Shown piece by piece: positions 9,012 through 63,405 of a stretch of DNA of 64,000 nucleotides (its first letter is position 1; every line of letters starts with the position of its first letter). Both the position numbers and the translations under genes were made by a program. The notes under the pieces are model-generated. The model was given only the letters and a program-made list of their open reading frames with translations, made no database searches and had not been told where the DNA came from. Source of the DNA: Isurus oxyrinchus (taxonomy: Eukaryota); assembly GCA_026770705.1 (NCBI GenBank), contig JANJGN010000005.1, forward strand, positions 159,340,001 to 159,404,000. The letters run 5' to 3'.

Positions 9012-9050
9012 AGTTCTGTCAAAGGGTCATGAGGACTCGAAACGTCAACT
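9012..9050 (+). ncRNA. minimal hammerhead ribozyme-like motif (degenerate core CUGUCAA)
   Basis: agtt CTGTCAA a gggtc atgag gactc GAAAC GTC aact. Confidence 0.55.
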
Positions 9051-9317
9051 CTTTTCTTCTCCGCCGATGCTGCCAGACCTGCTGAGTTTTTCCAGGTAAT
9101 TCTGTTTTTGTCCCAGCTTCTCAATGCTGTTGTTACCACAGTATTTATCTGGCTGATACAGTTAAGTTTCTGGTCAATGGTAACCCCCCAAGATGTTGAT
9201 TGTGGAGGGATTCAGTGATGTCAGTTCACCAAAACTTGGGGTTAATGGTTAGATTTGCTGTTTTTTTTTAAATCGTATTATTTATATTGATATATAACCA
9301 GTTGATTGGTAGTAAGA

Positions 9318-24103: not shown

Positions 24104-25260
24104 GAGGAGTACATCAGGAGCATGAAGCCTGGTGACCTAGCTGTGTGCCTCATGGCATACAGAGAGCAGAGATGACTGAGAAGAGAGCGACTGAGACACC
24201 AGGCTGTACAGAGGGAGGAGCAGCATCCTCTGGAAGAAGGTGTGGCTGGGGCTCCTGCACACGCCGCAGAAGAGCCTCAGCAAGCCATCGCTGACCAGCG
24301 CCTAGCCAAACCCAGAGTCTATAGACACTGCCTTTCATTTCTGCAGATGACCAAGAACCAGTCTCAGGAACTAGTCGGTCACACCTGCAAGCTACTGCAG
24401 GATTTGGTGGCACGGGGACGTGGAGGTCATCTATTGCCAGTGGCTGTGAACGTGACCGTAGCTCTCAATTTCAATGGCAGTGGCACCTTTCAGGACTCCA
24501 CAGGTGACCTCTGTGGGATGTTACAAACCTCCACCCACAAATGCATCCATGAGGTCACGGATGCCATCTTCGTGAGGGCGCACAACTTTGTGCAATTCAC
24601 CCGGGACCAGTTAGCATGGAAAAGCAATTGGATTTGCCCAGATCTCAGGTTTCCCCACAGGCACAGGGTGCCATCGACTGTACTCATGTGGCACTCAGAT
24701 CTCCATGGCAACACTCGGTCAACTGTGTCAACCGCAAGGGATTCCATTCTCTGAATGTGCAGCTGGTGTGGATCCTGCAGGTCTGTGCACAATTTCCAGG
24801 GACTGTCCACAACTCCTACATCGTCATTTAGTCACAGATCCCTGATGTTTTCCAGGGTCCACAGAAACTGCAGGGATGGGTCCTTGGGGACAAGGGCTAC
24901 CTGCAGAGGATGTGGCTGATGACACTCCTGTGGTGGCCTCAGATTGCAGCACAACAAAGGTATAACGGGGCTCATGCTGCAACTTGCATCTTAGTGGAGC
25001 AAACCATTGGAATGCTGAAAATGAGGTTCCAGGGCCTGGACCGGCCTGGTGGAGCCCTGCAATATAACCCACAGAAGGTATCACACATTGTCGTTGTCTG
25101 CTGTGCCCTTTACAACCTGGTGCTGCAATGGGGAGAGGAGATGGAGGAGCTAGAGGTCTCCCACGCTGTGGAAGATGCCAATGGGGATGAGCGGTGAGGA
25201 GGTCCTCGCAAGCGGCGATGACAGGGATGAGGCCCTCATGCTGGCCAGATGAGGCAGGTG
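24104..25260 (+). pseudogene. HARBI1-like DDE transposase, frameshifted
   Basis: [65 protein letters not shown]. Confidence 0.9.
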
Positions 25261-26190
25261 ATAGACTTAAGGAGGATTTTGACAACATGCGGTGAGAAGA
25301 CACTATAAGATCCTCACATCGCATCTGTGAACGTTTGACTCCAGTCTTGCTTATGGCAGCACAAATACTCTGTGATAATGCTCCTGTCATGGAGATGCAG
25401 TGGAGGCCCTCATAGTTGTGCGATTGCAGGAGGATGATGACGAAATGCAGTGAGGGCACTCCATAGGTCTTCACATAGCCTCTGAGAATGTCTGACTGCT
25501 GTCTGGTCGAGGGTAGCTCGCTTGCACTCTTGTGATCAGGGACATATCATAGAGACACAGCCATGAAACTTCAAAAGCATCTGATCCTTTGTCTGCCTAC
25601 AGAATCTGACCCCTTCAGGAGCACAGCATCATTGGTCACAGATGCTGAAGAGATGGGGGGCCAGCCCCACCCTAAAGGTGCTGAGAGCACACAGAGAGAA
25701 TGACAGTACTTTATGACGCTGCCCACAACATTCTGGCAGCAATGACAAGCACCGTCGATATGCAGGCATCACTAATGTGTTCAGAGAATATGAGACTGGA
25801 CTGTCACTTTGGTCTGAAGGCTGCAAAAAGCACGGGGAAGAGGCCCTGGACTCAAGACACCTGCCTTTATCTTGTGCAGAAAGGTTTCACATCTGAATGA
25901 CAGAAACCCTGCTCATCAGAACAAGGAGCCATAGGCAGGGAGACATTCTTGGGAGTTTATCAGCAAAAGTGAACAGTATGTACAGGTGTTTAACACCTGT
26001 GTCCAGGCCGTGCAGCATTTGAATCACAGCCATCCAGTACTACTTACACTTCAAACCAATAGTGCACAGGGCACTGCTGTGAAGAAATTGAGTCTGGGTT
26101 CCTCAGTTGTATGTGACAGAGCTCAAAAAATGCTACCCAGGAAAAGCATGTTTAATGTTTTCATTTACTGGTGAATGATACTGAATAAAA

Positions 26191-29100
26191 GTAGCTCTTC
26201 CTGATTGGGCTCAGGTGCACCTTGTTGCTGCCTGGGTGGGAGCTGTTGCTTTGTGCTGTGCCTGAAGCTGGAAGGAGCCAGGAGTTACTGCTGAGATTTT
26301 GCTGCTTACTGTCTTTTGCCTCGGGCACCTCAGGACTTCTTTATTTCCTGTTTTGCTGCTGCCCAGAGGACACTAAAAGCGTGTAAAACCTCATTGCTGG
26401 TGTTTTTGCTGCAGCTGCAGGGCCTGAAGCATGAAGCCTTGGAGGAGAGAGAGGGAGAGGAGGTACTGCAGGACAGGGAGGCCAGGAGGCTTTACCTAAC
26501 ACCTGAGGTCGCTGTATGGACATTTGTTTGGAGGGGGCAGAAGACAACCTCGTGCTTTATGGGGGGGTGGAGAGAAGACATTTGTAGAGACTTAGGGAGA
26601 AGGGGCGTGTGCGTTCATTTAAGATCTTGCCGCAACCCTACCCCAACCCCGTCACTTCGCTGGTGTCTACGTTCAGTAGCTGGTGCTGCCTGGTGAAAAG
26701 GGATGGTGCCGATTCCTGTGTGCCAGGCAGTGCTGGCTGCCTGGTGAAGACATTGTCCTCCCCCCAAAGGAAGACCAGCAAGGCCCCAATTCCCCCCTAC
26801 TCCACCAAGTGACACCTGCCTGTTCTCCCTCTCCCTCCTCTCCTCTCTGTTTTTGCCATTTCAGAGGGAGAGGTCACAACATCCTTTCCCCTCTCCCCCG
26901 GGTGGGATATTTTTGCATATAGAGCTCAGGCGGCTATGGCTGAGCCCCTAGGGCTGTGACAGGGTTGCCTCCAGCCAGGCCTTCCTGGGCAAGCATGGAG
27001 GCGGTGCTGTCACCGGTGGCGGGGCTCCCCAAGAAAACATGCGGGTGCAGCTGCTTCTGTGGCCCCTCCTGCTTCCACAACCCCATCACCCATCCGTTTC
27101 CTTACTAAGACCCTGGGTGTCGAGCTACACGCACCCCGAAATGACAATCGAAGCGTGTGTTAAGGCTATGGCTGGGGTCCTCTGCCCCTCAGCCATAGTT
27201 GCCGCCTCGAAGATATATAGCAAAGCCATATTTTTCTTGAGGTCAGAATGGGCGGTGCACCTGGCCCTTGAAAAGTGGCTCACTGTGGGACATTACTGGC
27301 AGTGGACCCTTTGGCGAGAGCCCAGAGGATCATAATTTCGAACGTCCCCAGTGAGCTCCTCCTCCCTTCACCTCCATCAACTGGGGGAGGTTAGGTCAGG
27401 GGTCGTACCCATCCTGCTTAGCCTCAAGGAGACAGCTCTCCGCCATGTGCACTCCTTATAGTGCCAGATTTTCATCCGCCTGGCGCAGGAGGAATGCACC
27501 AAGGGGGGCTTTAGTGTTGAGCACGAGGGGGGCCGCCCACCAGGTACTCTGGACTGTGGATGGCCTGCAAGGAGGTGCGGCATGTCCAAAAGCACTGCCC
27601 TGCCTCCAAGGCTGCCAATGTCACATGGGTGGCCGCGGCTGCCACCGCCACTCCTCCCCCCTCCACCATCCCATCTTCCTCTCCACAAGGGTAGGAGCTG
27701 CCACCACCTCAGTTGCCGGCAAGGTGGAGGAAAGAACCCCATGCCAGAAGCATGTGTTGTGCTTCCTGCAGGGAATACCCGCCTCGTGGTCACAGCCCCC
27801 CAAACCTGCCCTGACCCCCCAGACCCTTGAAGACACCGGCTTGAGGTGAAAATAAGTCTTGCAGCCCTGGCGACGTAACTGTGCATGCTCCCTGGCCCAT
27901 GGGGATCTCAATGCCATGTCCTGGGCCTGGCATCGTCCCTGTGCAGGTTCCTGGGTCCAGCAGCAAAGGGGCAAGTGATCCTGAGCCGGTGATCCTCAAG
28001 AAAATTGACCTGCTCATACCCCAGAGGGCAGAGCAACTTGGGGGGGTGAGAGGGTGGGCTGGTGGAGGCCTTGGAGATGGAGGTCTCAGCAACACCCAGC
28101 CTACCCCAGAAGAGGTGCCACACCTTGGAAGGGGATCGTGAGGTCCACTGTGTTTCCTCCCCTGGTGAAAAGGTGGTGGCTTTTCAGCCCCAGAAATCCT
28201 TGCTCTGCCCTCTGAGGGAGCCCAGATCCCTGACTCTCGCTGCAGTCCCCTGAGCAGGGCCCCTCGGGAGTTAGTGAGTCCATCACCCTTGCAGTGGTGC
28301 CCCACCCTGACCCACCTTATATCCCCAAAATGCCATCTGGCGTGGCAGTCCATTCATGGCCCCAGTGGTGGGTCATCGGGCAGCAGTGGCGAGGAAGGTA
28401 TCCCTGCTCCCTCCCGACCTTCAGCTCCGGGCGGCTCCATCCAGATCTTTATCCGGACTCGCCAGGCCACCCGGTGCCTGAGGAGGAGTGGGGCTCTGAG
28501 CCGCTGCCAACCTTTGGCCAACATCCCCAAGAGGACACCAGAGAGGACCCCTCTGCCCTTTATTCTGGTGGCAGCTCTGAACCAACCCCCGTACTCGATA
28601 TGGGGAAGGGGTTGGAAGCTGGAGGCGATGACCTGGGGATGGACGGGATTTAGGTGGCGAGCACCGGGGAGGACTTAGAGTTGCTGTCTGGTGAGGAAGT
28701 GTCTCCTGGTGTCCCCCCATCGATTCTCCCCTCATCCCTGTACGGGAGCCCCAGCATTTTCTAGCGAGCAATCGCAGTCATCAAGACAGTGTCCAGTTGG
28801 CCTTGGACCGGTGGCATTCTTTTCTGCTGGTGTTCTGCTCCGCCCATGAGGCTCTCAAGGCCCCTGGGCTGGACCAGAAAGCCAAACTGAGGGTATTTAC
28901 ACTTCTTGCGGAGTGGAAGGTTTAAAAAATCCCCTCCTCCTTGCACTTTGCACTAGGTGATGGTAGCACTTATTTCTGGAAATGAAGACAACCATAGCTT
29001 GCTCTAACATCAACGGCAGCAGGGACGCATAGCGCAGTTTCCAGAACTTCTCGGTCCTCAGGGGCAGGAAGTAAGTGGTGTGCTTCCTGCAGGAAACCAT

Positions 29101-32100
29101 ACCATTTCGGGAGTTAGAGCTACATGGCTCCTGGAGTAGCGAGGGGGGGATCTGCATGAGTCCCTTGCCTCCAATTCTGGCGGGGTGGCTATCTTATTGG
29201 CTCCACATTTTAAGCTGGAGATATTGAGGGCCAAGGAGCCGGTGCCAGGCAGGTTGCTGCACCTTACTGTGTGCCTAGGGGGTGCGGCACTTCACTTCGT
29301 GAATGTGTATGTTCCCCTGGGCTCACAGCAGCAAGCGAGCTTCTTTGAGGAAGTGTCCACTCATCTGGGCTCCATTGACGCGGGCGATGCATTGTCCTCA
29401 GGGGGGATTTCAACTGTATCCTTGAGGCCCGGGACCGTCACAGTACCCAGCACCGCATGCCAGGTGTGAGTAAGTTGAGGGACCTGGTGGGTGCCTGGCG
29501 GCATCTCCATCCTGACTCCAGCATTTTCACTTTCGTGCCAGAGTGTCCACACTGCACTCAGACGGGCTCCACGTACGGGCACTTTATCAACCTGCTGCTG
29601 GGGGTGTGTGGTGCCTGGACTCGTTCCATCATTTCTGGGCTGGCTGGAGAAGAAAGCAGGGAAGCTTCCCCTCCTTGAGGCTATGGCGGGACGTGGGCAA
29701 GGCTCACGCTCGCATCTTCTGTTAGGAGTACGTGAGGGGGCCGACAAAGAGGTGGAAACCCAGGATTGAGGAGTAGGAGAAGGAGGTGTCCGACCTGGAG
29801 GCACGTCTCCGTCAGCCCGACGCGGACATGGCCCTGCGGCTGGCGTACAAAGAGAAGGGTGCGCTGCAGGAGCTGCAACTCATCGGGTCTCACGGCGCGT
29901 ACGAGATCGCAGATCCTTCCCCAAGGACCTGGACCGCAACTTCCCCCTTCCCGCTGAAAATAAGGCATGAGGTCCGTCAGCAGCTACTTACGCTGGTGGC
30001 TGATGACGGATCCCTTGTCTCAGATCCGGAGGCCATCAGGGCCATTGCCAAAATCTATTAAACTGCCCTGTTCTCTCTGGATCTGTCCAGCGAGGATGCT
30101 CGCAGAGTCTTGTGGGAGGACCTACCGCAGGTCAGCCCGGAAGGCGCGAGAAAGTTTGACTCCCCTATAAGTCTGGGGAAGCTGACTGGTGCCCTCGACA
30201 GCCTCTCCAGGGGTAAGTCCCCAGGGCTGGACGGGCTGACTGTGGAGTTCTTCAGGGCATTCTGGGAAGTCCTGGGGAACGACCACGTGGGGGTCCTGGG
30301 GGAAGAGTATCGTGACTGGGGAGATGCCCCTCTCGTAGCGCAGGACGGTCATTGCCCTGCTGCCCAAGAGGGGCATCTCCACCAGCTTAAGAATTGGCGC
30401 CTGGTCTCCCTCCTCAGCATGGATTACAAGATCTTTGCCAGGACAATATTTTCTCGCCTTGGCACTGTGTTAGGCCACATGATCCACCCTGACCAGTCCT
30501 ACACCGTCCCAGGACGGACCATGTTTAATAATATCCATCTGGTCTGGGACATCATCCACTTTTTCCAGAGAACTGGACTGTTGAGTGCCTTCCTGTTTCT
30601 TGACCAGGAGAAGGCATTCGACAGGATGGATCACGAATATTTATTCGGGACTCTGCGAGCATTCAGGTTCAGGGTGCATTTCGTCACCTGGATCCGACTT
30701 CTGTACACCACCGCGGAGTGTCTAGTGAAGGTTAACAGGTCCCTGATGGCGCCCCTTCACTTTGGCAGAGGAGTGCGTCAGGGCTGCCCCCTCCCCGTCT
30801 AGCCAATTGTATTCTATTTGCGTGGAGTTTTTCCTGCGCCTCTTGTGGAGGAGGTTGTCGGGATTGGTTCTGCGCAGGCCGAGCATTGGGGTTGTCCTCT
30901 CACCTTACACCGATGATGTGCTCCTCACATTCTCCAACTCGGCTGACTTGCGAGTGCCAGGAGGTCTTGTCTGCCGTGTCCTCCACCAGGATCAGCTGGA
31001 GCAAGTGTTCTGGACTTCTGGTCGGTCGGTGGCAGATGGATCCCCTGCCCAAAGAGCTCAGGCCTTTCACTTGGAGCAGGACCAGTCTCCTCTACCTGGG
31101 GGTCTATCTCTGCCCTGCTGAGGAATCCTGGCCGGCAAACTGGCAGGAACTGGAGGCTAAAGTCATCACTCAACTGCGACGCTGGACAGGACTGCTCCGA
31201 GTGCTGTCTTACCGGGGTCGAGTACTAGTCATAAACCAGCTGATTGCTGCCATGTTGTGGTACCGGCTGGTCACTTTGACCCCTCCTCTGGACTTTGTCA
31301 CAAAAATCCAGAGAATGCTTGTTGATTTCTTCTGGGACAAAAGGCTGCACTGGGTCACTGCTGAGGTACTGAATCTCCTGCTTAGGGAGAGTGGGCAGGC
31401 ACTGGTGTGCCTACGCACATAGGTGGCGACCTGCCGCCTTCAGACCCTGCAGCGATACCTTTACGTCGAGCCCCCTCCGAGATGATGTGCCCTGGTGACC
31501 TATTTTTTCCGCCAGGTGTATGGCTTGAATTATGACATGCAGCTCCTGTTTATAGAGCAGAGGGGCCTCGGTGGATCCTTGCAGGCGTTGCCCGTATTTT
31601 ACCAGGACCTGATCAAAGTCTGGAACATGGTTGCCTCGTGTCGCAGCTCCCCGCCATCAGGTGTAGTGGCTATCATCAGAGAACTGCTCAGGAATCCGCA
31701 CCTCCGCCATTTTTGGTGGCTGGTGGAGAGGAGGGCTGTGGCTGCCAGGGTGACAAGGATCAGGGATGTGCTGGGTGGCAGAGGAGTGGGCTGGATGATT
31801 CCACAGGAGTTGTCGCATCGCGCATCGGTGGACGTCTGGCTCACGGCTAATGCCATCCATGGCCTTAGGATGGCCGTGCTCGGTCCCGACGTCATTCTGG
31901 GTCTTGAGATAGCGCACGTGCATGATGGTCTTCTGTCTGAGCATACCCCTGTTCAGATGGAATTCCACATTGGTCCAAAATCATGAACACTCCCTCAGGA
32001 GCCGGAGCCCGCAAACTGAGTCACCTTGAGGAAATGCCCTCTGTGTCCTTTGGCGCGGAGGGGTTTCCTGTACAGGCTGCTGCTGCACACCCTTCACGTC

Positions 32101-32796
32101 ATTGCCCTATCCCGCTGCTTCACCTTGTTGCCATCTGGCAGCGGAGGCCCCCAGTGGGGGTTCCTCTACGGGTTGTTCTCCTACTTTCCATCAGGGACCT
32201 GGAGTGGAAGGTGTTGCACGCAGCAGTCCCATAAAATCGTTGCATGTGTCGGTTCACGGACTTCCAAAATGCCTGCCTTTTTTGCAGCCTTGTGGAGTCC
32301 ATGGACCATGCTTATATAAGTTGTTTTAGGTTGCACCCCCTTTTTAGTTATTTGAAGAACCGTTTATTGTTTTGTTTGCGTGTTAGTCCCATGCTCCTGA
32401 TCTACAGGCACCCAGTGCAGAGAGGAGTGGGGAGGGAGGAGGACCTCCTCGTGAACCTGTTCCTGGGCCTTGCCAAGTTGACCATGAACAAGCCCAGGCA
32501 GCGGGTGATCGAGGGGGTCGTCTGGCCCGCCTGTCTGCCCCTCTTCCACGGCTACGTTCGTGGCCGGGCATCCCTGGAGAGGGAGCACTTGCTGTCCACC
32601 GGCACCATCGAGGCCTTCCATGCTCGGTGGGCACAGCAGGGACTAGGGTGTTTTATTGACCCTCTTCACATTTTGGTTTGATGTTTGTAAGTTTTCTTCA
32701 AATTTTGTCTTTGTTTTTGCAGTTTTCCTTTAAGGGGCTGCTTTTTAATTTGTCTCTGATTTTGTTAATTTAGCTTATTTGCTTTGGCTCAAAAGA
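26191..32796 (+). mobile_element. Tx1-clade LINE copy 1 (near full length, decayed): 5' UTR, ORF1 ~26936-28955, ORF2 28982-32681
   Basis: ORF1 AIVAASKIYSKAIFFL; APE motifs SNING, LQET; RT motifs KSPGLDGLTVEFF, LDQEKAFDR, GVRQGCPL; C-terminal CLFC..ESMDH...C. Confidence 0.92.
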
Positions 32797-35700
32797 GTTG
32801 CACCTTCTTGATAGGAATCAGACGCAGCTAGTTACTGCTGAGTTGCTGCTCTTGCTGCTGCTTTGGATCGGAAGGCAAGAACAAGAAAACATCTTTCCTG
32901 GGGCGCTTACCTATCTGATGAGAGAAGGGAAGGAAAAAACAGAACACTGCTGATAAGGGAGGAGAACTGCTGCTCTTGGAGGTGGCCTATAGAGAGAGGC
33001 CTCAGGCCTTGGACCTAGCCCCATTTGCACAGAGAAGACCAAGTGGGAGGAAGTCGCATCTGGACCAAAATCTGTTGTGACGTCAAGAGATGGGTGTTGT
33101 GGACCTGAGTGGGGGAGGGTGGGTGGAAGATTTCTGTCCAGGGGATCATTGTGCTGACAGGAGCTGGCGGAAGAGCAAATAATACTGGTGGGGTGTGGCT
33201 GTGTTTGTGGACTTTCTTTTTGACATCTTGTGACTATTTGCACCCACCTCACCCTTCGCCTTCCTTTCAAGTTCAGGCTAGCTGGGGCTGCTTGGTGAAT
33301 AATACCATCTGTCTCTAAGACTCTGTGCTGGGCAGTTCTAGCTACCCGGATGAAGACGCTTGCTTCCCTCTGTCCAAAAACATTTTATTGTGCAGGAACC
33401 ACCTACCCACCAGTGGCACCCGACCACCTTGTGACATTCCATCCTCCTGTTCCCTCCTCCCTTTCTACCCTCCTCTCTCTGACCTTTGTTGTTTGGAGAG
33501 TACATTTCCCAACCTTATCTCCCTGTATTATATTAATATCAATAACATTTTAGGGTGGCTGTGGCTCCGATAGCCCATGGCTACACCATTTCCAGTGGTG
33601 GCCAGGCCATTGAAAACCACCTATACGAAAGAGGTAGTTTCTCCATCTCATGCCGCTCCCATGGCCCTGTCACCTTTTCGTCTGGTGACTCGGGGGCGTG
33701 GTGTTAAAAGCTACACCCACCCTGATGTGTCTATTGAGGCCGGCGTGAAGACAATGGCCGGGGTTGTCAGCCCATCGGCCACTTTTGTGGCCTCTAAAAT
33801 GTATGGCAAGGCCATGTTCTTTCTGGTCCAAGTGGGTTGTGCACCTGATCCTGGAAAAGGGGCTTACTGTGAGCGAGTCCTTTCTGGCGGTGGGTCCTCT
33901 TGAGGCCACCGACCAGAGACTTGTATGTCCAACGTCCTGCCCTTTGTCAGTGAGCTCCTCCTTCCCCACCTCTTATCTACTGAGGGAGGTCAGTTCCGAA
34001 ATTGCGCTAACCCTGCTCAGCCCGCATAGATTCCTTTTGGCACCAAGCATTTGTGCGTCTGACCTGGGAGGAGTGCATGGAGGGGGGGGCTTCAGTGTAG
34101 AGCATGAGGGGGTCGCCTACAGGGTCTTCTGGAATGCAGTTGGTGTGCGGTGCCATGCCTGAAAGGAGGTGGGGCGCATCTGAAAGAACTGTCCCACCTC
34201 CAAGGCCACCAACGTCACTGAGGTGGCAGCTCCACACCAATCCCCGCCAGCACTCCAATTACAAGGGGATGTGACACCGGATGCTGGCGAGACCAAGGGA
34301 AAGAAGGTGCAGAGGAAGACCAAGCATCTAGAGGCTGCTTCCAAACTCATTCCCAACCCCAGCCTGAACCCCAGAACCCCCCCAAGACACAGGCTCAGGG
34401 GAGAAAACAACATATGGCCCTGGCGATGTAACCACGCGTGCTCCTGGGCCCATAGGCATCTCAGCACTAAGTGCTGGGCCAGGTGTCGTCCCTGCGCGGG
34501 TTCCCAGGTCCACTCGCGATGGAGCATGAGACCCCGAGCCAGTGGTCATCCTCAGAAGGATTGACCAGCCAAAACCCCAGAGTGCGGAGCGCCTGGAGGC
34601 AGTGGAGGCCTCACAGATGGAGGTCTCCCCAGCCTATCCCTTGGAGGGGGGAGGATCTCGTGACTTGTAAGGTCAAATGTGACTCCTGCCCCGATGAAAA
34701 GGTAGGAGCATCTCCACCTTGCTAGTCCTCGCTCTGCTCACTGAGTGGGGCCTAAAACAATGACTCCTTGCCACAGTTCCCTGAGCAGGGCCCGTCGGGG
34801 GTCAGTGAGAGTAACACGCTTGCGATGGTACCCCACCCCGACCCACCTTGCATTCCCGAGATGCCAACTGGCCCCCAAGGGCACTGCAGCAGTTGTTTTA
34901 CTGCCCCAAGCACTGGGCCATCGGGCAGCGGTGGTGAGGAAGGCCTCCCTGCTCCCTCCCAACCTTTAGCGCCAGGCGCCTCCATCCTCAATCCAGAGTT
35001 TTCTCTGGACTCATTGGCCGACTTGGCGCCTGGAGTGGAGCGAGATTCTGAGCTGCTGCCACCCTGTGGCCCAGAACCGGAACTGGAGACCAGAGAGGAC
35101 CCCCTCTGCCCTTGATCCTGGGGGTGGGATTAAGGGGGAGGTGGAGCTGACTGGCAGTTCCAAACTAGCCCCCATACTCAACACGGGGGAAGGAGTTGGA
35201 AGCTGAAGGTAATGACCCAAAGGAGGATGGCGTTTCGGTGGTGAGCACTGGGGGTGACTTAGAGTCGTTGACGGGTGAGGTGGTGGATCCCCTGGTACCT
35301 CCCATCGATTCTCCCCTCATCCCAGTACGGGAGCTCTAGGATTTTTTAGCAAGTAATCATGGTCGCCGAACAGAGTCCAGTTGGTCTTGGACCGGTGGCA
35401 TTCATTTGCACTAGTGTTCTGGTCCGTCCATGAGGCCCTCAAGGCCCTCGGACTGGACCGGAATACCAAGTGGAGGGTCCACGTGTTTTTCACTGGGCCC
35501 CTGAAGGAGAGGAAGACTTAGTATTTCTCTCCTTCCACTATCTGAGGTGTTGGTGATGGGTTAAACACTTCTGATAATGAAGAGTACTATAGCTAGCCTT
35601 AGTATCAAAGGCAGGAGTGACACACAGCACGGGTTCCAGAACTTCTCAGTCCTCAGGGATGGGAGGTATGCGGTGTGCTTCCTGCAGGAAACCCATAGTA

Positions 35701-38272
35701 TTCCAGGATTCAAAGCTACGTAGTTCCTGGAGTGGCTAGGGGGGATCTACATGAATCACCTAGCCTCCAATTCTTATTAGCCGCACATTTTCAGCCAGAG
35801 ATAATGAGTGTCAAGGAGTCAGTGCCAGGCTAGTTGCTGCACACTATTGTGCGCCTAGAGGGTGAGGCACTTCACTTTCTGAACTTGGTGCGCAGCAGCA
35901 AGCGAGCTTCTTTGAGGAAGCATCCACTCATCTTGACTCCATCGACTCGGGCAAGTGCATTCTCCTTGTGTGGGGGTGTACCCTTGGGGCCAGGGACCGT
36001 CTCAGTGCCCAGCACCTAAGTTGAGTGCCCTGGTCTTCAACTTGGTGAATACCTGGCAACATCTCCATCCTGACTCCAGCCTTTTCACTTTCGTGCCACC
36101 TGAAGTTGGAGTGTCCAGATGCGACCGCCTTTATATTTCCAAGGCATTGCTGCCCTGTGTTCCATCGGCTTCAGTGCAGCAAGTGCCGTGCACAGACCAC
36201 CGCCTGAAGTGGGTGAAACTTGGTCCTTTCTGCGCTCAACTGGGGTCCATGTACCGGCACTTCAACAACCTGCTGCTGATGGATGAGTGGTTCCTGGACT
36301 CGTTCCGTCATTTCTGGGCCAGCTGGTAAAGGAACTGGGGAGGCTTCCCCTCTTTGAGGCTATGTTGGGATGTGGGCAAGGCTCACGTCCGCATCTTCTG
36401 TCAGGAGTACGCAAGGGGGTCGACAAAGAGACGGAAACCCAGGATTGAGGCGTTGGAGAAGGAGGTGCTCAACCTGGAAGCACGTCTCCGTCAGCCCGAT
36501 GAGGACCCGGCCCTGTGGCTGGCATACAAAGAGAAGAAGGCAACTCGCCGGGTCCCGCAGTGTGTTTGTGAGGTCGTGGATCCGGTTCCTTAAGGACCTG
36601 TACCGTGGCTCCTTCTCGCTAGAAAGAAGGCACGGAGTCCGTCAGCAGCTCCTTACACTGTTGGCCAATGACGGATCCCTTGTTTTTGATCCGGAGGGCA
36701 TCAGGGCCGTTGCCGGAGCCTACTACACTGCCCTGTTCTCTTCGGATCTGTTCAGCGAGGATGTTCGCAGAGGTTTGTGGGAGGGCCTGCCACAGGTTGG
36801 CCCAGAGGGCGCTGGACAGCTTGACTCCCCTAATAAGTCTGGGGGACCTGACTGGCTCCCTTGACAGCCTCTCCAGGGCCAAGTCCCCAGGCTGGGTGGG
36901 CTGACCTGCAGCCCTTCAGAGCATTCTGGGACCTCCTGGGAAACAACTACGTGGTAGTCCTGGGGGAGAGTATCGTGACCAGGGAGATGTCCCTCTTGTG
37001 GTGCACGGCTGTTATTGCCCTGCTGCCGAAGAGGAGGGATCTGCGCCATCTTAAGAACTCAAATCCGGTCTCAATCCCCAGCAGGAATTACAAAATCTTT
37101 GCCAGGGGAATGTCTTCTCTCCTAGATAGTCCCAGGCCGGACCATTTTTGATAATATCCACCAGGTCAGTCTCAGACCTGAGGGGCATTCGTGGTTCCTT
37201 GCAGGTGTTGCCTGTCTTTTACCAGGACCTGATCAAAGTCTGGAACATGGTCGCCTCGCACCGCAGTTCCTCACCATCAGGAGTAGCAGCTATCATCAGA
37301 GAACCACTGCTGAGGAATCCACACCTCTACCACTTTCGGTGGCTGGTTGAGAGGAGGGCTGTGGCTGCTGGGGTGACCAGGATCAGGGACGTGCTGGGTG
37401 GCAGAGGAGTGGGCTGGGTGCTCCCACAGGAGTTGGTGCATTACAGCCATCCATGACCTTAGGACGTCGTCATTCTGGGGCTCAAGATGGTGTGGGTGAG
37501 TGATGGTCTTCCATCCGAGCACAGCACTTTTCAGACGGATTTCCACAATGGCCCCAAGCCCTGAACCTTCCCTCAGGAGCTGCAGCCCCACAACCTGAGT
37601 CACCTCACAGAAATACCCCCCCCCACCCCGGGAGTCCTACATGGGAGCCCTCCCCCTTTCCATCGGGGAGCTGGGTGGAGAGTGTTGCGTGCGGCAGTCC
37701 CATACAATCGTTGGACGTGTCGGTTCACACTCTCAAGATGCCTGCACTTTTTTTGAGACCTTGTGGAGTCTGTGGACCATGAATATGTAAGTTGTTGTAG
37801 GCTGCACTCCCTTTATGGTTTTTTGAAAAACCTTTTGCTTTTGTTTGCGTTTCAGTCCCGCTCTCCTGATCTACAGGCACCCGGTACGGAGTGGGGCGGG
37901 GAGGGAGGAGGATCCCCTCGTGAACCTGCTCCTGGGCCTGGCCATGTTGGTCGTTAACAGGTCCAGGCAGCGGGCAATCGAGGTGGATGTCCGACCCAAC
38001 TGTCTGCCCCTCTTCCACGGTGACGTTCGCGGCCGGGTGTCCCTGGAGAGAGAGCGCGTGGTGTCCGCTGACACTGTTGAGACCTTCCATGCTTGGTGGG
38101 CACCGCAGGGAATGGGGTGCTTTATAGACCCCTTTAATCACATTGTGGCTTAATGTTTGTAAGTTTCTTTTAGATTTTGTCTTTCGTTTCTGCAGTTTCC
38201 CCTTAAGAGTCTGCCTTTTAATTTCTCCCTTGATTTGTTAATTTAGTTTATTTGTTTTGTAACTCAAAAAGA
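32797..38272 (+). mobile_element. Tx1-clade LINE copy 2: ORF1 from 33577, ORF2 35577-38153 with an internal deletion near 37165
   Basis: Colinear with copy 1; ASKMYGKAMFF, TDHR, FYQDLIKVWNMV, GCFIDPFNHI*. Confidence 0.9.
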
Positions 38273-39179
38273 GTTACATCTTCTTGATTGGATACAGGTG
38301 TGCCTCGCTGCTGCCTGAGCTGTGGCTGTGGCTGGAGATGGAAGGAGCCAGGAGCTGCTGCTGTTGTTGCTCTTCTCTAACATCATTGGACTCTTGTCTG
38401 TTTTCAGACCCTCCAGACTCTGTACAACTGTTGCTGCTACTACTCAGAAGACAGCCTCCCAGTAAAACCTGCTGCTGCTTATATTAGGGCTGCAGGGCCA
38501 TGGAGCCTGCAAGGCCTGAAGCCTACTAAGGAATTGGAGGAGAGAGAGTGAAGACAGTGCTGCAAGACGGAGAGGCCAGGAGGCAGGCATTTAATTACAA
38601 ATACCAGAGGTGGGTGTCTGAGCTCCTGTTTGGTGGGGGCCAAAGAGATGTCATGTGCTTTATGGGGTGAGGACAAGGAAACTTGAAAGACCTGGGGAGA
38701 TGGGGTTTCTCTGTGCTCTTAGCCCCCCAGCCCCCTCCTTCCCTCCTCCCTTTGTGCTCAAGTCCAGGTAGCTGGTGCTGCCTGGCGAAGAAGGATTACG
38801 CTGGCTTCTCTGTGCCAGGCAGTGCCGGCTGCCTGGTGAAGGTATCATTGCCCTCCCCAAAGCCCACCTTACTAGAAGAACAGCGGGCCCCCACCCCACC
38901 CCACCTAGAGATATCCACCCACCGTGCATCCTCTATTCTCTCCCTCCTGTGTCTCCCTGCCCTCCCCTCCCTATTTTACTACATAGAGGCCACACCATCC
39001 TTTTTCCCCTTTCCCCATAGTGGAATATAGGCATCAAAATCTGAAGGAGTTCAGGGTGGGTGTAACTCATCCCCTATGGCTGATGCAGAATCACCAGTGG
39101 CCAGGCCCTCCGGGTGACTGTGGAGGCAGATTCATCACTAGTGGCGGGGCCCCCCAAAAAAGCACATGCGGGAATAGCT

Positions 39180-39412
39180 AAAAGCAAAATACTGCGGGTG
39201 CTGGAAATCTGAAACAAAAACAAAATTTGCTGGAAAAACTCAGCAGGTCTGACAGCATCTGTGGAGAGATAGACAGAGTTAACGTTTCGAGTCTGTATGA
39301 CTTGAAGAAGAGTTCTGTAGAAGAGTCATACGGACTCGAAATGTTAACTTTGTCTTTCTCTCCACAGATGCTGTCAGACCTACTGAGTTTTTCCAGCAAT
39401 TTTTCTTTTTGT
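39180..39412. mobile_element. non-coding fold-back mini-Penelope element inserted in Tx1 copy 3
   Basis: Two inverted copies of the Penelope terminus; 13-bp TSD tgcgggaatagct at 39167-39179 and 39413-39425. Confidence 0.88.
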
Positions 39413-40805
39413 TGCGGGAATAGCTGCTTGTGTGGCCTCCTCTGCTCCTGCGGCCCCATCACCATTTTGCCTCCTGACCAGGGCCCTCAGGGTAAAGAGC
39501 ATCCCGCGACGACTATAAAAACAAGCATAAAGGTTTTGGCCAGAGTTGTCGGCCCCTCTGCCATCGTTGCAGCCTCGCACATGTATGGGAAGGTGGTGTT
39601 CTTCCTGAGGTCCGAGTGGGTCGTGCACCTGGCTCTTGCCAAGGAGCTCATCGTAGGCAGGACCTATTTGGCATTGGATCCTCTTGAGGCCACCGCAGAG
39701 GGGCTTATTTTATCCAATGTCCCGCCCTTCGTTCCCGATGAGCTCCTCCTCCACCACTTTCACCAACAGGAGGCGGTCAGGTCTAGGGTGGTGCCGATCC
39801 TGCTTGGCCCCAGGGAGCCCAGTCTCCACCACGTATATTCCTTCCGCCAGGCCCGGGAGGAGTGCACAGAGGAGCAGTTTGTTGTAACCTTTGAGGGGGC
39901 TGCCTACCACATCTTTTGGTGAGCAGACAGTGTGCGGTGCCATGCCTGTAAGGAGGTTGGGCATGTGCAGAAGAACTACCCTGCCTCAAAGGCCGCCAGC
40001 ACCACCCAGACAGCGACGGCTGGCACCGCCACACCTACCCCCCTCCACCACTCCATTTGCTTCCCCCCAGGGATCAGAGTTGCTGGCAGTGGAAGTCACC
40101 CTGTCCACCAGTGAGGCGGGGAAGGAGCATCCCGCAAGAAGAAGCTGCAGCAGAAGGCTAAGCATGCCGAGGCGGTTCCCAGCCCCAACTGCAAACCACA
40201 ACCCAATCCAAGACACCTTCTGCCATCAGCTCGGGGAGTGTTGACAGTTCCAGGCTCGGCATCGATCTTGCATGCGATCACAGGTCCGTAGGCACCTCAG
40301 CATAGAGTGTAGTGCCCGTCAGCCCCCGGGTCCGGTGACAGAGGTGCATGCATCCTTGAGCCAGTGATGGTGCTACAGTGGGTCAGAGCACCCAGGTCCC
40401 AGAGGGTGGGGAGCCAGGAGGAGGAAAGCGAGGAGAGGTGGGGCCTCCGACATAAAGGTATCCCCCACCCGACCCTCACCCGGAAGGGGCGCCAACCCTC
40501 GTGTCATGTGCAAGGTCAAGCATGCTAATCCCTCCCCCAGTAAAGAGGCAGCAGTGCCCTCACCCTCCCAACCCTGTGATCCTTCGCCCCACATTCTGGG
40601 AGACCAGGATGACACTGACTAGCTGCCACAGTGCCCTGAGCTGGGCACCTAGCAGGGTGGTTAGGGTGCAGCTATTCTGGCGGCACACTGCACGGAGCCA
40701 CCCCGTAACCCTGAGGCGCCTGCTGACTCATCGGGGGACTGCAATAGTGCCAGTGACGCTGGTTCATTGGGTGGTGGCGGCGAGGAAAGTCTCTCTTTCC
40801 CAACC

Positions 40806-40875
40806 TTTGGCATTGGATCCTCTTGAGGCCACCGCAGAGGGGCTTATTTTATCCAATGTCCCGCCCTTCGTTCCC
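40806..40875 (+). repeat. exact 70-bp duplicate of 39667-39736
   Basis: tttggcattggatcctcttgaggccacc...cccttcgttccc occurs twice; peptide LALDPLEATAEGLILSNVPPFVP appears in two ORFs. Confidence 0.9.
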
Positions 40876-43800
40876 TTTGGTGCCAGGTGCCTCTGTCCTG
40901 GTCCAGAGTTTTTTCTAGACAAACTGGGTGATCCAGTACCTGAGAGGAAGTGGGGCTCTGAGCTGCTGCTACTCCTTGGCCCATACTCTCAAGAGGAGAC
41001 CAGAGAGGACACCTCTGCCCTTGATCCTGGGGGTGGGAATGAGATGTGGGGCTGATTGGCGGCTCCAGTCCTTTACTTTTCTAAGGCGTTCATGTCCTGC
41101 ATTCTATCGACGTCTGTGCAGCAGGTGCTGTGCACAGACCACCATCTAGTGTGGGTGGAACTCATCACGTACTGTGCTCAGATGGGGTCCGCGTACTGGC
41201 ACTTTAACAACCTGCTTCTGGAGGACGAGTGGTTCCTGGACTCGGTCCGTCATTTCTGGGCCGGCTGGAGAAGGAAGCAGGGATGCTTTTGTCCCTGAGG
41301 CTATGGTGGGATGTGGGCAAGGTTCACGTCTGTGTCTTCTGTCAGGAGTACGTGATGGGGTCAACAAAGAGTTGGAAATCCAGGCTCAACAAGTTGGAGA
41401 AGGAGGTGCTTGACCTGGAGGCACATCTCCATCAGCCCGATGCGAACCTGGCCCTGCAGCTGATATATGAAGAGAAGGGCGTGCTGTGGTACCTGCAACT
41501 CGTTGGGTGCCACAGTGCGTACGTGAGGTCATGGATCCAGTTCCTCAAGGACCTGGACCACTGCTCCCCTTTCTACTCACTGGAAAAAAGGCACGGGGTC
41601 CATCAGTAACTCCTGATCGATGACAGATCCCTTACCTCAGATCCTGAGGGCATCAGGGTTCTTGCCCGAGACTATTACATTGCCCTGTTCTCTCCGGATC
41701 CATCCAGTGAGGATGCTTGCAGAGTTTTGTGGGAGGACCTGCCACAGGTTGGCCCAGAGGGTGCAGGAAAGTTTGACTCCCCTATAAGTCTGGGGGAACT
41801 GACCGGTGCCCTCGACAGCCTCTCCAGGGGCAAATCCCCAGGGCAGGGCGGGCTGACTGTGGAGTTCTTCAGGGCGTTCTGGGACGTCCTGCGGAGTGAC
41901 TATGTGGGGGTCCTAGTAGAGAGTATCCTGACCGCAGAGATGCCTCTCTCATGGTGCAGGGCTGTGATTGCCCTGCTGCCTGAGAGGGGGGATCTCTGCC
42001 ATCTTAAGTACTGGCGCTCGGTCTCCCGCCTGGTCTCCCTCCTCAGCACGGATTACAAGATCTTTGCCAGGGCAATATCTTCTCACCTTGGCACCATGCT
42101 GGAACATATGATTCACTCTGACCAGTCCCACACTGTCCCAGGCTGGACCATCTTTGATAACATCCATCTGGCCCGCGACATTATCCACTTTTCCCAGAGG
42201 ACTGGGCTGTCAAGTGCCTTCCTGTCTCTTGACCAGGAGGCGTTTGACAGGGTGGAGCACAAATATTTATTCAGAACTCGGCGAGCATTCATGTTTGGGG
42301 TGCATTTCGTCACCTGGATCTGACTTCTGTACACTGCCGCAGTGTCTAGTTAAGGTTAACGGGTCCTTGATGGCACCCCTTCGCTTTGGGAGAGTTGTAT
42401 TCTTTCTGCGTGGAGCCTTTCCTGCACCTTTTGCGGAGGAGCTTGTTGGGACTGGTTCTGCATGGGCCAGGCATCGGGGTGATCCTCTTGGCTTACACTG
42501 ATGATGTACTCCTCATGTTCACCGACCCAACTGACCTGCGGAGGGTGTATGAGTGCCAGGAGGTCTATTCTGCCGCATCCTCTGCCAGGATCAACTGGGA
42601 TAAGTGTTCTGGGCTCTTGGTCGGTCAATGGCAGGTTGATCCCCTACCTGAGGAGCTCAGGCCTTTCACTTGGAGCAGGACCAGTCTCCTCTGCCTATGG
42701 TTCCACCTGCTGAGGATTCCTGGCCAGCGAACTGGCAGTAGCTGGAGGCCATAGTCACCATTCACCTGCGGCGCTGGACAGGACTGCTCCGAGTGCTGTC
42801 TTACCGGGGTCGAGTTCTGGTCATAAACCAGCTGATTGCTGCCATGTTGTGGTACCAGCTGGTCACTTTGATCCCTTCCCCGGAGTTTATCACAAAATCC
42901 AGAGAATGGTCATCAATTTTTTCTGAGACAAAAGGCTACACTGGGTTGCTGAATGTCCTTCTTAGGGAGGGCGGTCAGGCGCTGGTGTGCCTATGCACCC
43001 AGGTGGCAACTTTCCACTTTCAGGCCCTGCAGCGATACCTTTATGTAGAGCCTCCTCTGAGATGGTGTATTTTTCCGCCAGGTGCACGGCCTGAATTATG
43101 ACGTGCAGTTCCTGTTTCTAGACCTGAGGGGCCTTTGCGGCTTCTTGCAGGCGTTGCCCATCTTTTACCAGGACCTGATAAAAAGTCTGGAACATGGTCA
43201 CCTTGCAACACAGATCTCTGCCGTCAGGAGTAGCGGTTATCGTCAAAGAGCTGCTACTCAACAATCTGCATCTCTGCCACTTTCGGTGGCTGGTAGAGAG
43301 GAGGGCTGTGAATGCTAGGGTGACCAGGATCAGGGATGTGCTGGGTGGGAGAGGAGTGGGCTGGATGATTCCGCAAGAGTTGGCATATTGTGCATCAGCG
43401 GATGTCCAGCTCACATTCAATGCCATCCATGAGCTTAGGACAGTTGTGCTCGGCCCAGACGTCATACTGGATCTCAAGGATGCGCAGGCGTGCGGTGGTC
43501 TTCTCACCGAGTGTAACCCTGTTCGGTTGGAATTCCACATTGGTTCCAAGCCCTGAACCCTCCCTCGGGAGCTGCAGACCCGCAACCTGAGTCACCTCGT
43601 GGAAATGCCCTCTGTGCTGTTTAAGTATGACTGTATGGGCTGCTGCTGCACACCCTTCACTTCCTTGTCCTCGCCTGCTGCCTGGGCATGCCCTGGTGTA
43701 CCTTGTTGCCATCTGGCAGCGGAAGTCCCAAGTGGAGGGCTCTCTATACGGGAGTCCTCCCCCTTTCCATCGGGTACTTGGGGTGGAGGGTGTTGCACGC

Positions 43801-44371
43801 AGCAGTCTTGTACAACCATCGGTTGTGTCGGTTCACAGACTCCCAAAAGGCCTGCGTTTCTTGTAGCCTTGTGCATCCATGCACCATGAATTTGTAAATC
43901 ATCGTAGGCTGCACCTCCTTTTTCAGCTATTTTAAGAACTTTTTACTGTTGTTTTATTAGCGTTGGACACCTACGGGCACTTGGTGCTGTTGGGGAGGGA
44001 GATGCGGGGATGGAGAAGGACCTCCTCGTGAACCTGCTCCTGGGTCTGGCCAAGTTGGCCATTAACAGGTCCAGGCAGCAGGCGATCGAGGGGGTCATCG
44101 GACCTGACTTGCCCCTCTTCCATGGCTAGGCTTGCGGTCAGGTGTCCCTGGAGAGGGAACACGTGTTGTCCGTTGGCACCATCGAGCCCTTCCATGCTTA
44201 GTGGGCACCGTGGGGATTGGGGTGTTTTACTGACCCCTTTAATCATATTTTGATTTTTTTTGTAAGTTTCCTTTAGATATTGTTTTTTGTTTTTGCAGTT
44301 TCCCTTTAAGGGGCTGAGTTTTAATTTGTCCCTTGATTTGTTAATTTGGTTTATTTCTTTTGTAACTTGAG

Positions 44372-46019
44372 TTACATCTTCTTAACTTTCCTAAACCTGC
44401 CACTACGTCTTGGTGCACCCCGGCCATCCACAGGCAGGGCAGCCTGCTGACTGTTATGCCCTGTCTGTGATAACCTTGGCGAGCATCCTCATGAGGCCCA
44501 AGACCTGGAGGACCCCAGCCTGCTTTTGGGGTCCTGCTGTGTGGCAGTGTCAACCTCCTTGGCCTGTGGAGCTGGCGCTGCTGAGGTCACAGGAAGAGGG
44601 GATTCGGATGAGCCGGACACTCTGGGAGTCACCTGAATGGATGGCCCCAGGGGTGTACAGCCGCTGATCGTCCTCTCTATGGGTATCCAAGCGCCCCTGA
44701 CTGACTCCTTGAGGAGATGGGGTAGCTGGAGTGAGATCAAGGTGCCCTGCACCTCTCTCACATACATACTATTGGAGGTCAACTATGGCATCAGCGATGG
44801 AGTTCAGCCCGCGCAGCGATGCGGTAGTGATGTCCTGGACCCAGGTCTCCATGGCAGCCGCCATCCTACCAGTGTTGACTTCAGTGCCTTGGCATGCCGG
44901 TGTTATGACTTCAGCCTGAAGACGGACGGACTCCTCCGTTGTGCCTTGCAATCTGAAGAGTGCAGAGAACATCCCTCTCTGATGTTCCCTAGCTTGCCTT
45001 TGCAGCTCCAGCAACTGTGACATGGCCGAGTCCAGAGGCTCATCATCTGACTTGGACTCAATAGATTTCTGGCCACCAGCAGTCTGCCGAGTGCTGACAC
45101 CTGGGAAGTCCCTGCCGCTGCCTGCTGTAGATCAGAAGGTGCGATGTGCTCACCAGATTGTGATCCCGAGGCTACTCTAAAGCTAGGTCTCAACAAGGCG
45201 TGTGTGTCTGCAATGGTGGAAGGTGGGGGTGAGCGCTGTGATGGGACTTCAAGGACAATGCCTTTAGATTCCTCTTCAAAAATTTCTTCGGGGCTTCATT
45301 GGGGGGTCTGGGTCATGGACTCCGTCAGCTGTTTCCCAGATGTGCCTGTGGAAGCAAAGGGAGATAATTAGTGCTTGGCAGTGGATGTGAATCAGGACAC
45401 CTCACTCACAGCATGGTTGTCTGATAGATGTTGCACTGCTGGATCCTCACTTGGTAGAGCACAGGAATGGTCCAGATCGTTGTTGGCCAGCTGGATAGCT
45501 CTGTTTTCAAAATCTGTGATTTCAGGCATTCCTCCACCGGTCTGCGACCTCTCCCTCTTGTGTGCCAGCTTGTCCTGCATGAATAGAGATGGAGCGAGTG
45601 TAAGCAGGATGCCTGACAGACCAGGTGAAAAGTATGCCTGGCCTGTGTGGGTGCTGAGTGGTCCCATGGATGGGATGCGGACAATGAAGGTGAGTATGAG
45701 AGAGTGAATAGTGATGCCCCTTGAACTGACAGTGAGGGAGGGCCCTGTGGATGTGTGATGAGTTTGTGAGTTGAGAGTGATGAGAAGACTTACCCTGGTG
45801 GAACCAAGGAGATTCATTCTCTTGGGTGGCTGTCCTCTTTTCAAGGGCCTTGGCGCTGACCACCACTGCCTCCCAAGCCGGATTAGTGAGGTTGCTGGCC
45901 ATCCTGCAGCCAGAGCAGGGGTAGTGAACATCACGTCGGGCCTGCACTGCGTCCAAAAGGCACTCAAGGGGCGCGTCATTGAACCTGGGTGCTGCAGTCC
46001 TTTTGCCTTTCAGGGCCAT
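44372..46019 (-). pseudogene. Harbinger Myb/SANT-like DNA-binding gene, 3 exons (46019-45794, 45574-45410, 45345-44372), decayed
   Basis: MALKGKRTAAPRFNDAPLECLLDAVQARRDV...AWEAV; donors GTAAGT and GTGAGT, CAG acceptors; ends PRRSGRFRKVKKM* with TAA at 44374-44372. Confidence 0.8.
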
Positions 46020-46919
46020 GTCTTCTTTGTAGCATTGGTGGGCTGGAAGCACTGAGATGTGTGCATGCGGCGGACTTTAAATATGGTGCCCGGCATGCTG
46101 AAGTGGTGAGGTCATGGCATGGGTGAATGAGAGCCTGTCCACCATGGAAGTGGTGCATTTCCTGGGAATGCATAATTAATACTGCGCGATTGGGGACGAT
46201 ATGGTGTGAAAAGCCGCCATTGGGGCCAGCGGATAAAATGTCATTTTACCTGCCTGCTACTGCACTTTGGGTGGAATCGTCCCAGATTCGCACAATGTCT
46301 CTTTTCCACAAACTCTCATCCATGAATAAAATAACATGTGCAACTCAATTCATTTATAGCATGTTTAAATTCTAATGTTGGAAGTTTTAACTATTACAAT
46401 AAGTGATTTCAAAAATGTGACTTTTGTATAAATGCAAATTAAGGAGTTTATGGATGTCAGATTAACCCTTGACCTTCTGAAAATCTTTTTTTCAATAAAC
46501 AAAAAATCATTTGTAGCATATTAAGTGTTTAAAGAGATATGACTTCAATGGGGAATTTTCAGCTGACTTGATTCTTGCTCAAGCTGGTTTAATATCTACT
46601 GACTTCAATTATAATTTTAGACAACCAGATGCAGTGCTGACTTGTATCAGGCAAAGATTAGAAATAATACATTCGTAACATCAAATAAGATTTTTAACTG
46701 CTGTGATGTTATTCTGATTCCTAACCTAGTAAGAACACATAGAAGGTGAGAATGGGAAAAGATCATGAATGTTCCAGTGATTTGTGTTCATGTGCAATGC
46801 CCTATCTTTAGTTTCTGTTTTCAGTTTCCCCCTGCTTTAACAGTGTGTTTCCTTAACTCCAAAAGCAGGAAGCTGTCCATCTTTCATTGAAATTATTTAG
46901 CTAAATCAGTGTGCTTTAC

Positions 46920-47043: not shown

Positions 47044-47118
47044 AAATTAGTGCGCTGTGGAGCACTCTTCCATAAATTAACCATTCTTTAACAACCAAGT
47101 GATTAATCTTTAAGTTAT

Positions 47119-47157
47119 AGTTGACGTTTCAAGTAACTATGACCCTTCATCAGAACT
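47119..47157 (-). ncRNA. minimal hammerhead ribozyme motif (canonical core, eroded stem II)
   Basis: Reverse complement agtt CTGATGA a gggtc atagt tactt GAAAC GTC aact. Confidence 0.65.
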
Positions 47158-49132: not shown

Positions 49133-49713
49133 TTAATCTTTAAGTTATATATACCTTCAGATCTCCTTAGTTTAGAATCAAGTTCCTTTTGGTTTCTGAT
49201 CATGCTGTTAGCTTGTGAGCATCCTAATTCATTTAATAATTTAAAAAGATTTCTCTCTCAAAAACAATAAGTAAAGGATTATCTCCCCTGTTCTGACTGA
49301 AGAACCAGTAACTTCCTACCTGCTTTTCTTATGAGCCCTTTCCAACAACTGTGTTTCTAAACATTTGTAAAAAAAAAAGGTGTTGAAGATTGGACTGAGC
49401 ATTTATTTTTCAGTGATGCTAACTTCTTGTGTATCTGTTTAAACATCTTAACCTTGATTTATTGCCACAAAGATGATAATTGCACAATTTAGATACAAGT
49501 AGCATTCTTCAGTTGGGTGGTGAATTGAAGTAAATTACAATTATAGCACACATCGTTCAGTGCCATGATTTTCACACAATGGGCCAGATCTTCCATTTAA
49601 AAATAGCGGGGAACTTTGCAACAGCCGCCATTGTTGTGCACTGGCGGCCAGAGGAAGTCCCACTGTTCGCACACATGGTACTAGCGTGTGAACCTTAAAG
49701 TTCCTTTGGGCAG

Positions 49714-63300: not shown

Positions 63301-63405
63301 GTTTAGCTCTGAAGAAGGATCTTATGGACTTGAAACGTTAACTATTTCTCACCCCACAGATGCTGTCAGACCTGCTGAGTTTTTCCAGCATTTTCTGTTT
63401 TTATT
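60313..63405. mobile_element. Penelope-like element C, inverted fold-back (short - arm 60313-60866, long + arm 60867-63405)
   Basis: 15-bp TSD attgttaaact(ca/tg)at at 60298-60312 and 63406-63420; LFTMDVQSIYISIP, LLYIGETKRRLGDHFADH; hammerhead-like motifs at 60410-60448 (-) and 63305-63343 (+). Confidence 0.9.

Follow-up and report, generated by a model that had tools for sequence, protein, structure and literature searches.

Three Tx1 retrotransposons head-to-tail at one position of a shark Harbinger transposon: probable stacking from right to left into a rebuilt target site

How do several distinct copies of a retrotransposon come to stand head-to-tail at a single nucleotide of a DNA transposon? 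The question is raised by a 64-kb stretch of the shark Isurus oxyrinchus (GenBank assembly GCA_026770705.1, contig JANJGN010000005.1, forward-strand positions 159,340,001 to 159,404,000; hereafter the window, whose own coordinates are used below), where three Tx1-clade long interspersed nuclear element (LINE) copies, all in the same orientation, occupy one exact position of a Harbinger DNA transposon. A first-pass annotation had described the copies as successive insertions into a self-regenerating target, and missed the Harbinger host of the array. Based on comparison with other copies across the genome, the three distinct copies most probably inserted one by one from right to left, each into a site rebuilt beside the Harbinger left arm by the previous insertion.

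The host left arm (23684 to 26013, plus strand) lacks its outer end and finishes ...CAGGCCGTGCA immediately 5' of the target. The array does not begin at this host edge, near 26013, where a 182-bp fragment of an unrelated poly(A)-tailed LINE-like repeat (26014 to 26195, plus strand), interrupted just before its own tail, stands instead. Copy 1 (26196 to 32798, plus strand, as are the other two copies) is full length and has the most complete open reading frame 2 (ORF2) of the three, which is broken; its 5' end is TCTTCCTGATTGG, without TACA. Copy 2 (32799 to 38274) is also full length, with internal deletions, and starts TGCACCTTCTTGATAGG, the CACC form of its ORF1 relatives. Copy 3 (38286 to 44372) has full-length ends, a deleted endonuclease domain and an unrelated repeat inserted at 39173-39413. 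It is preceded by TACATCTTCTT (38275 to 38285, plus strand), which is the same as the Harbinger target and likely the left target-site duplication (TSD) of copy 3, and followed by TACATCTTCTT again (44373 to 44383, plus strand), which is the downstream half of the Harbinger target and the right TSD. RNAfold predicts 3'-terminal hairpins on the plus strand for copy 1 (32786 to 32799, the A-run forming the loop) and copy 2 (38258 to 38278, with a stem of 8 bp that extends into TACA).

The host was assigned to PIF/Harbinger through a broken transposase gene in its left arm (~24100-25200; DDE_Tnp_4, E=2.5e-15), with GAIDCTHV and GDKGY in the translation. The right arm (44373 to 46294, minus strand) carries a broken second gene, starting near 46019 and convergent with the transposase; its frame gave no Pfam match, and by its motif pattern only it is a candidate Myb/SANT-like gene. 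The insertion site thus falls between the two genes; the right end lies ~1.9 kb away and the left end >2.3 kb away. The right end is common to 8 copies; the left end is missing from the window, so the 3-bp TWA TSD typical of Harbinger cannot be read there. As a side observation, the last 27 bp of the right end (46268-46294; see also L198) are inverted relative to other copies, beside a short palindrome.

Among the 29 other loci that best match the right arm, 23 are empty, with left and right arms continuous, and 6 are filled, all at a single breakpoint. The empty sites read GTGCA-AC-TACATC (CAGGCTGTGCA-AC-TACATCTTCTTAAC), whereas GAAAGA-GT precedes TACATC in the filled ones, and the insertion site is CAAC^TACATCTTCTTAAC. 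Exact 24-mers counted genome-wide gave 702 empty versus 612 filled sites, with none for the reversed controls. The 612 filled exact junctions, together with varied 5' truncations that have TSDs, indicate that a multicopy target was hit independently at one and the same nucleotide; this target is also used by a tRNA-like short interspersed nuclear element (SINE). Given that about half of the sites are filled, stacks of three are to be expected (~2.6% of sites with three or more insertions, assuming independent hits), three full-length copies being rarer. Of 28 other Tx1 3' ends, 22 run into the Harbinger site directly or via a tandem and 6 lie elsewhere; among these six, L075 and L079 also show a duplication of ~15 bp that starts with TACA, and L077 and L085 a less clear one. 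We infer that the Tx1 endonuclease nicks the bottom strand at the Harbinger site and requires upstream Harbinger sequence. Secondary sites were also seen within Tx1 ORF2, namely TACTGGCAC in two loci and TATAAG in one (L205:1667, L251:5263, L250:4242).

What stands at the junctions themselves? The four target-like strings reported at 26191, 32797, 38273 and 44371 (J1 to J4) are all present. The exact GTTACATCTTCTT occurs twice in the window (38273 and 44371) and never on the minus strand; two mismatches add 32797 plus two unrelated places. J2 differs from this J3/J4 13-mer at 2/13 positions and J1 at 5/13; in the longer comparison, J2 matches J3 at 16/19 positions and J1 matches it at 14/19, but at just 8 of the first 13. 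At J1 the A-run and GTAGC derive from the unrelated repeat and only TCTTCCTGATTGG is Tx1. That repeat has 8 other copies (80-86% identity), most of which continue AATAAAAGTAGCAATTTTCTAAAAA, and supplies AATAAAA plus GTAGC; the fragment likely came in either through a template jump or through a separate, fourth insertion.

The 13 bp common to the last two junctions had been read as a plausible TSD of copy 3. The sharing is exact, but since empty sites have AC and filled sites GT before TACATC, GT is not part of the target and arrives with the insert, so the 13-bp TSD was rejected in favor of TACATCTTCTT, of 11 bp, or 10 if the T is assigned to the element. The motif is hence composite: GT closes the 3' hairpin of the upstream element, TACATCTTCTT is target, and full-length 5' ends hold a look-alike, TACA[G/C/T]CTTCCTGATTGG. 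Only GT or GTTACA of it belongs to the 3' untranslated region (UTR), which argues against a mere 3' UTR consensus. The A-run noted before the first three junctions is there as well; its reading as a poly(A) tail was rejected, as it is a predicted hairpin loop at J2 and J3 and part of the other repeat at J1.

The copies elsewhere in the genome show how such junctions arise. In 5'-truncated copies and in the tRNA-like SINE, the left TSD is TACATCTTCTT(AAC), and TSDs of truncated inserts measure ~8-17 bp and start with TACA. Full-length 5' starts, found after CAGGCTGT, come in four forms: GCTTCCTGATTGG, GGAGCTTACAGCTTCC, GCAA(T)TACAGCTTCC and the TSD-like GCAACTACATCTTCC. Since the second and third contain letters absent from Harbinger and are found in solo copies beside the Harbinger arm, the element's own 5' end resembles the target. 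Both routes suggested for leaving a fresh target at one nick, through the TSD and through the 5' end of the element itself, were thus seen among genome-wide copies. That solo full-length copies begin with a target-like motif is true of many; however, the commonest full-length 5' junction, the GCTTCCTGATTGG form with 57 exact matches, has lost TACA, and so site regeneration by the 5' end is not universal. A TSD as the usual full-length 5' junction was discarded, as the 15 matches to the left arm plus TACATCTTCYTGA comprised 12 empty Harbinger variants, 3 truncated or SINE inserts and no full-length copy; a looser pattern gave 12 matches of mixed types.

At the other end, most of 28 folded Tx1 3' ends are predicted to form a small hairpin whose loop is A-rich. 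For one common form the predicted stem requires the terminal TACA, which suggests that Tx1 RNA may end in TACA and prime by 4-5 bp homology. Some Tx1 copies (L192, L194, L200 and L225) form a group whose 3' tail was swapped for the 3' half of the tRNA-like SINE, L200 and L225 being mutually close. Foreign pieces also occur at or near the Harbinger site, one joined to a full-length Tx1 5' end (L216:1712-2000) and one ~20 bp upstream (L215:1640-1985); from their sequence these are presumably histone H2B coding and histone H4, respectively, and the near-target heads of L188, L224 and L039 are presumably tRNA-like.

Could plain double insertion, of the kind described for R1 and SINEU-3, have left a decayed Harbinger TSD at every junction, with no role for the element's 5' end? 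J3 equals the target at 11/11 positions, TSD-type full-length junctions exist (L067, L088, L148, L152, L154), and the few differences at J2 could be due to decay. Against this, solo copies start with letters that Harbinger lacks (GGAGCTTACAG), the G and CACC forms are present at every junction of an array and track the downstream element (L192, L203, L208), and CTGATTGG lies within duplicated stretches (L188, L206). Junctions carry element-derived letters, and J3 alone consists of host-target letters. The explanation is already contradicted genome-wide, and we regard it as unlikely for this array.

The direction of growth was read from arrays at other loci. Head-to-tail Tx1 arrays, whose counting the first-pass annotation had suggested, gave 11 exact tail-to-head junctions genome-wide and 0 in the control. 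In 60 stretches fetched around full-length 5' ends, 22 arrays have an insert placed 5' of a full-length copy. Of these 22, 11 have a readable left TSD, which repeats the 5' form of the downstream element in all 11 and is of the Harbinger type in none; it includes private changes of the downstream element (L188, L189) and CTGATTGG (L206). Among 36 loci chosen by 5' UTR likeness, 13 keep TACA, 15 are without it and 8 are unclear, and 7 of the 13 TACA-keeping 5' ends carry an upstream insert. As for reuse downstream, 54 copies without 5' TACA (40 newly fetched) included 34 with a readable 3' end: 31 that run straight into Harbinger, 2 nested at internal sites and a single ambiguous one. Reuse therefore contrasts between 7/13 TACA-keeping 5' ends and at most 1/34 3' junctions (Fisher p=2e-4). 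A search with the tail-to-head pattern returned 22 matches (4 in unrelated DNA), none showing the spacer that an insertion into a junction without TACA should leave.

Since 3' junctions are hardly reused and the newcomers in L225 and L260 used a different site upstream, the live site seems to be the one adjoining the Harbinger left arm. Moreover, GGAGT-TACAG is reused beside that arm (L190) but AGAGT-TACAT at 3' ends is not, which suggests either recognition further upstream or blocking by the hairpin. The order proposed earlier for the window (copy 3, then 2, then 1) matches this polarity and is likely, being inferred from the other loci; it is unreadable in the window, where all three copies are full length. 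Growth in the opposite direction, each copy entering at the 3' junction of its predecessor (order 1, 2, 3), is compatible with the window sequence, where TACATCTTCTTAAC is intact at the 3' junction. Yet it fits 0 of the 11 informative arrays and runs counter to the 31 of 34 3' ends that join Harbinger directly, and is accordingly very unlikely.

Alternatively, filled Harbinger copies might have given rise to the array through recombination or gene conversion, or Harbinger transposition might have spread it as a composite. In favor of this, Harbinger and Tx1 copies are similarly diverged (~82-85%), and repeated units with a single truncation point (L144, L203, L206) point to later unequal exchange. 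On the other hand, the many different truncation points with TSDs speak for independent insertion, and hitchhiking multiplies an array but does not build one. Flanks of the commonest junction resemble one another no more (0.824) than they resemble empty sites (0.836; 94/116 flanks retained after removing low-identity rows), so that hitchhiking as the sole cause is unsupported by the flank comparison. We give this explanation even less weight than growth from left to right. Runs of truncated copies with a common truncation point were seen in L144, L203, L206 and G000:C1:263314361-263315433, and are likely products of unequal exchange after insertion.

The stacking of different subfamilies rests on the relationships of the copies. 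The assignment to the Tx1 clade is based on the similarity of ORF2, with its apurinic/apyrimidinic endonuclease (APE) and reverse transcriptase (RT), to Tx1 proteins. Over an RT stretch, copy 1 shares 55% identity with Xenopus Tx1 ORF2 (YTX2; 98% of the query covered), ORF2 matches the RVT_1 profile, and by tblastn the Xenopus protein spans aa 14-1291 in copy 1 and maps on all three copies with differing gaps (~aa 193-263 in copy 1, ~617-914 and 1004-1137 in copy 2, aa 1-206 in copy 3). ORF1 gave no Pfam match; a decayed CKEVRHVQKHC-like stretch in its translation is a candidate CCHC knuckle. The copies share 70-81% identity in ORF2 plus 3' UTR and ~65-72% in the alignable 5' UTR/ORF1. The ORF1 tree (50 rows) puts copy 2 in a clade of 5 rows (100/98) that includes L208 (TACACCTCC) and L209 (TACACCTTCC), copy 3 in one of 17 rows (100/100) and copy 1 in a group of 6 rows (93/86). 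The ORF2 tree (34 rows) is star-like, with 4/31 branches supported, and therefore the three subfamilies that had been expected from an RT tree are shown for ORF1 only. In ORF2 the three copies are 81-82% identical, rank 10-28 of 33 and are no closer than random pairs.

As had been claimed, the copies differ in their 5' UTRs and ORF1s (three ORF1 groups) and carry separate deletions (distinct ORF2 gaps), and are not a recent tandem duplication; nor are they mutually closest relatives, each having closer relatives elsewhere. An old tandem triplication of a single Tx1 copy, with the motif inside the repeat unit, agrees with an ORF2 tree that does not reject a single clade (p=0.5) but not with three ORF1 groups, two of them fully supported, separate deletions and closer relatives elsewhere, and can practically be dismissed. 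All Tx1 copies seen are old, and no copy in the window has a neighbor closer than 85%. End-branch lengths give no order of the three copies (0.16, 0.20 and 0.14 for ORF2; 0.18, 0.19 and 0.14 for ORF1).

The stepwise, right-to-left history that we favor would then run as follows. The start of each copy would rebuild the landing site, and a newcomer, with the last TACA of its RNA terminal hairpin pairing with the primer, would settle just upstream of the older copy. At J3 the site may have been rebuilt as the TSD of copy 3, because J3 equals the Harbinger target, whereas the ORF1 sister of copy 3 (L205) starts TACACC; this junction is thus likely a true TSD. At J2 the site was likely rebuilt by the 5' end of copy 2 itself, because relatives of copy 2 start TACACC and copy 2 starts TGCACC. 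At J1, copy 1 would have been joined to the foreign fragment, TACA was lost and the stack ended.

Several observations weigh against this history. The order within the window is unreadable, and all of its junctions are also compatible with a later insertion downstream that was joined through microhomology. Half of the arrays (11/22) are uninformative, most arrays were selected by junction pattern or 5' UTR likeness, and the classes behind 7/13 and 1/34 were sorted by eye and may differ in age. Target specificity is not strict, as Tx1 copies also enter other TACA/TATA/TACT sites (6/28 off-target; L225, L250, L251, L260). ORF2 does not separate the copies (approximately unbiased [AU] test, p=0.5 for a single clade), and their shared ORF2 substitutions (26 pairwise and 4 three-way, versus random means of 19 and 2) are high but inside the 5-95% range. 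Finally, flanks cluster slightly at the commonest full-length junction (20 changes versus 25.6 when shuffled, 2/500), which also favors recombination, and some composites may have hitchhiked or been copied.

A more speculative idea, which we consider doubtful, is that the Tx1 5' end, GGAGCTTACAGCTTCC, descends from an ancient junction between tail and target (AGAGT-TACATCTTC) and that selection preserves it as a landing pad carried by the element. If so, the pad would restore the site even without a TSD and would direct subsequent copies, SINEs and captured RNAs to upstream positions where they do no harm. The resulting stacks within a DNA transposon would be strictly polar, in the manner of HeT-A but at a non-telomeric location.

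Some further features were observed in the window. In the ORF1 of copy 3, a 70-bp stretch is duplicated at 100% identity (39667-39736 and 40806-40875) near the deletion that removed the endonuclease, and is therefore a much younger templated repair event; the insert at 39173-39413 in the same ORF1 is an abundant unrelated repeat, present as an inverted pair with an apparent 13-bp TSD. The array lies ~5 kb beyond the apparent stop codon of a CUB + LDLa receptor gene, whose exons at 1984-3138 and 20276-21139 are presumably LRP3/12-like. Penelope-like copies with inverted segments are found at 6458-9111, 47116-49139 and 61511-63405 (GIY-YIG, weak match).

With thousands of natural integrations at one site, the rules of a site-specific APE retrotransposon become readable: TACA at the nick, a TSD of 8-17 bp, an apparent need for the upstream flank and a hairpin replacing poly(A). 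Polarity and a self-carried half-site would account for the growth of mixed head-to-tail LINE arrays away from telomeres and ribosomal DNA, and the counts suggest that a LINE came to occupy roughly half the members of a DNA transposon family, at a position between the two genes. The significance is limited by the age of the copies and because stacking as such has been described before. A search for reports of cartilaginous-fish Tx1 targeting Harbinger, of polarity or of a self-carried half-site found none, with Repbase, subscription journals and the supplements of PMC4494074 outside its scope; the available text on Mutsu (PMC5340908) and Utopia (PMC4640811) held nothing relevant to self-targeting.

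The closest known systems share parts of this behavior. Xenopus Tx1L inserts in an apparent DNA transposon, Tx1D, and the available text of PMC1950540 gives its endonuclease target as AGTT 3' of the nick. The shark elements resemble it in ORF2 (the 55% over the RT stretch) and in site-specific insertion into a DNA transposon; AGTT on the cut strand corresponds to AACT on the top strand here, a four-letter match only (PMC1950540). They differ in that the host is a two-gene Harbinger, and mixed-subfamily stacks and a 5' target look-alike go unmentioned for Tx1L in the accessible part of that paper. In crocodilians, Tx1-9_AMi targets Harbinger ~300 bp from its 5' end, and Tx1-Mar and SINEU-3 are found in Mariner-N4_AMi (Kojima 2015, PMC4494074); SINEU-3 tandems enclose the TSD, explained there as sequential insertion, and R2 co-transcription is mentioned. 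Tx1 families with passenger SINEs that target a DNA transposon, and tandem insertions, are thus common to both (PMC4494074). Unlike Tx1-9_AMi, the shark family inserts between two convergent Harbinger genes, a position that does not match that of the Tx1-9_AMi lineage as given in the available text. Polarity and a self-carried target are undescribed for crocodilian Tx1 in the main text of PMC4494074; junctions of that kind might appear in its supplementary figures S3-S6.

Drosophila R1 tandems, according to the available text of bioRxiv 10.1101/158386, arise by double insertion, their units sharing one 33-nt TSD and being expanded by unequal exchange. The shark arrays are alike in their head-to-tail copies, the target duplication between them and repeated insertion at one site; unlike those of R1, their units are different subfamilies and the site is partly supplied by the element. 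R2 carries target-derived 5' sequence, this extra sequence guiding 5' joining, and HeT-A carries 5' tags from its upstream neighbor. An element 5' end that resembles the flanking target, or the 3' end of a neighbor, is thus a likeness to R2 and HeT-A, which belong to different clades; here, by contrast with R2, the 5' look-alike seems to give the following copy its site back. Repeated stacking at one fixed target was already known, and the element-supplied site and one-way growth are a new variant of it.

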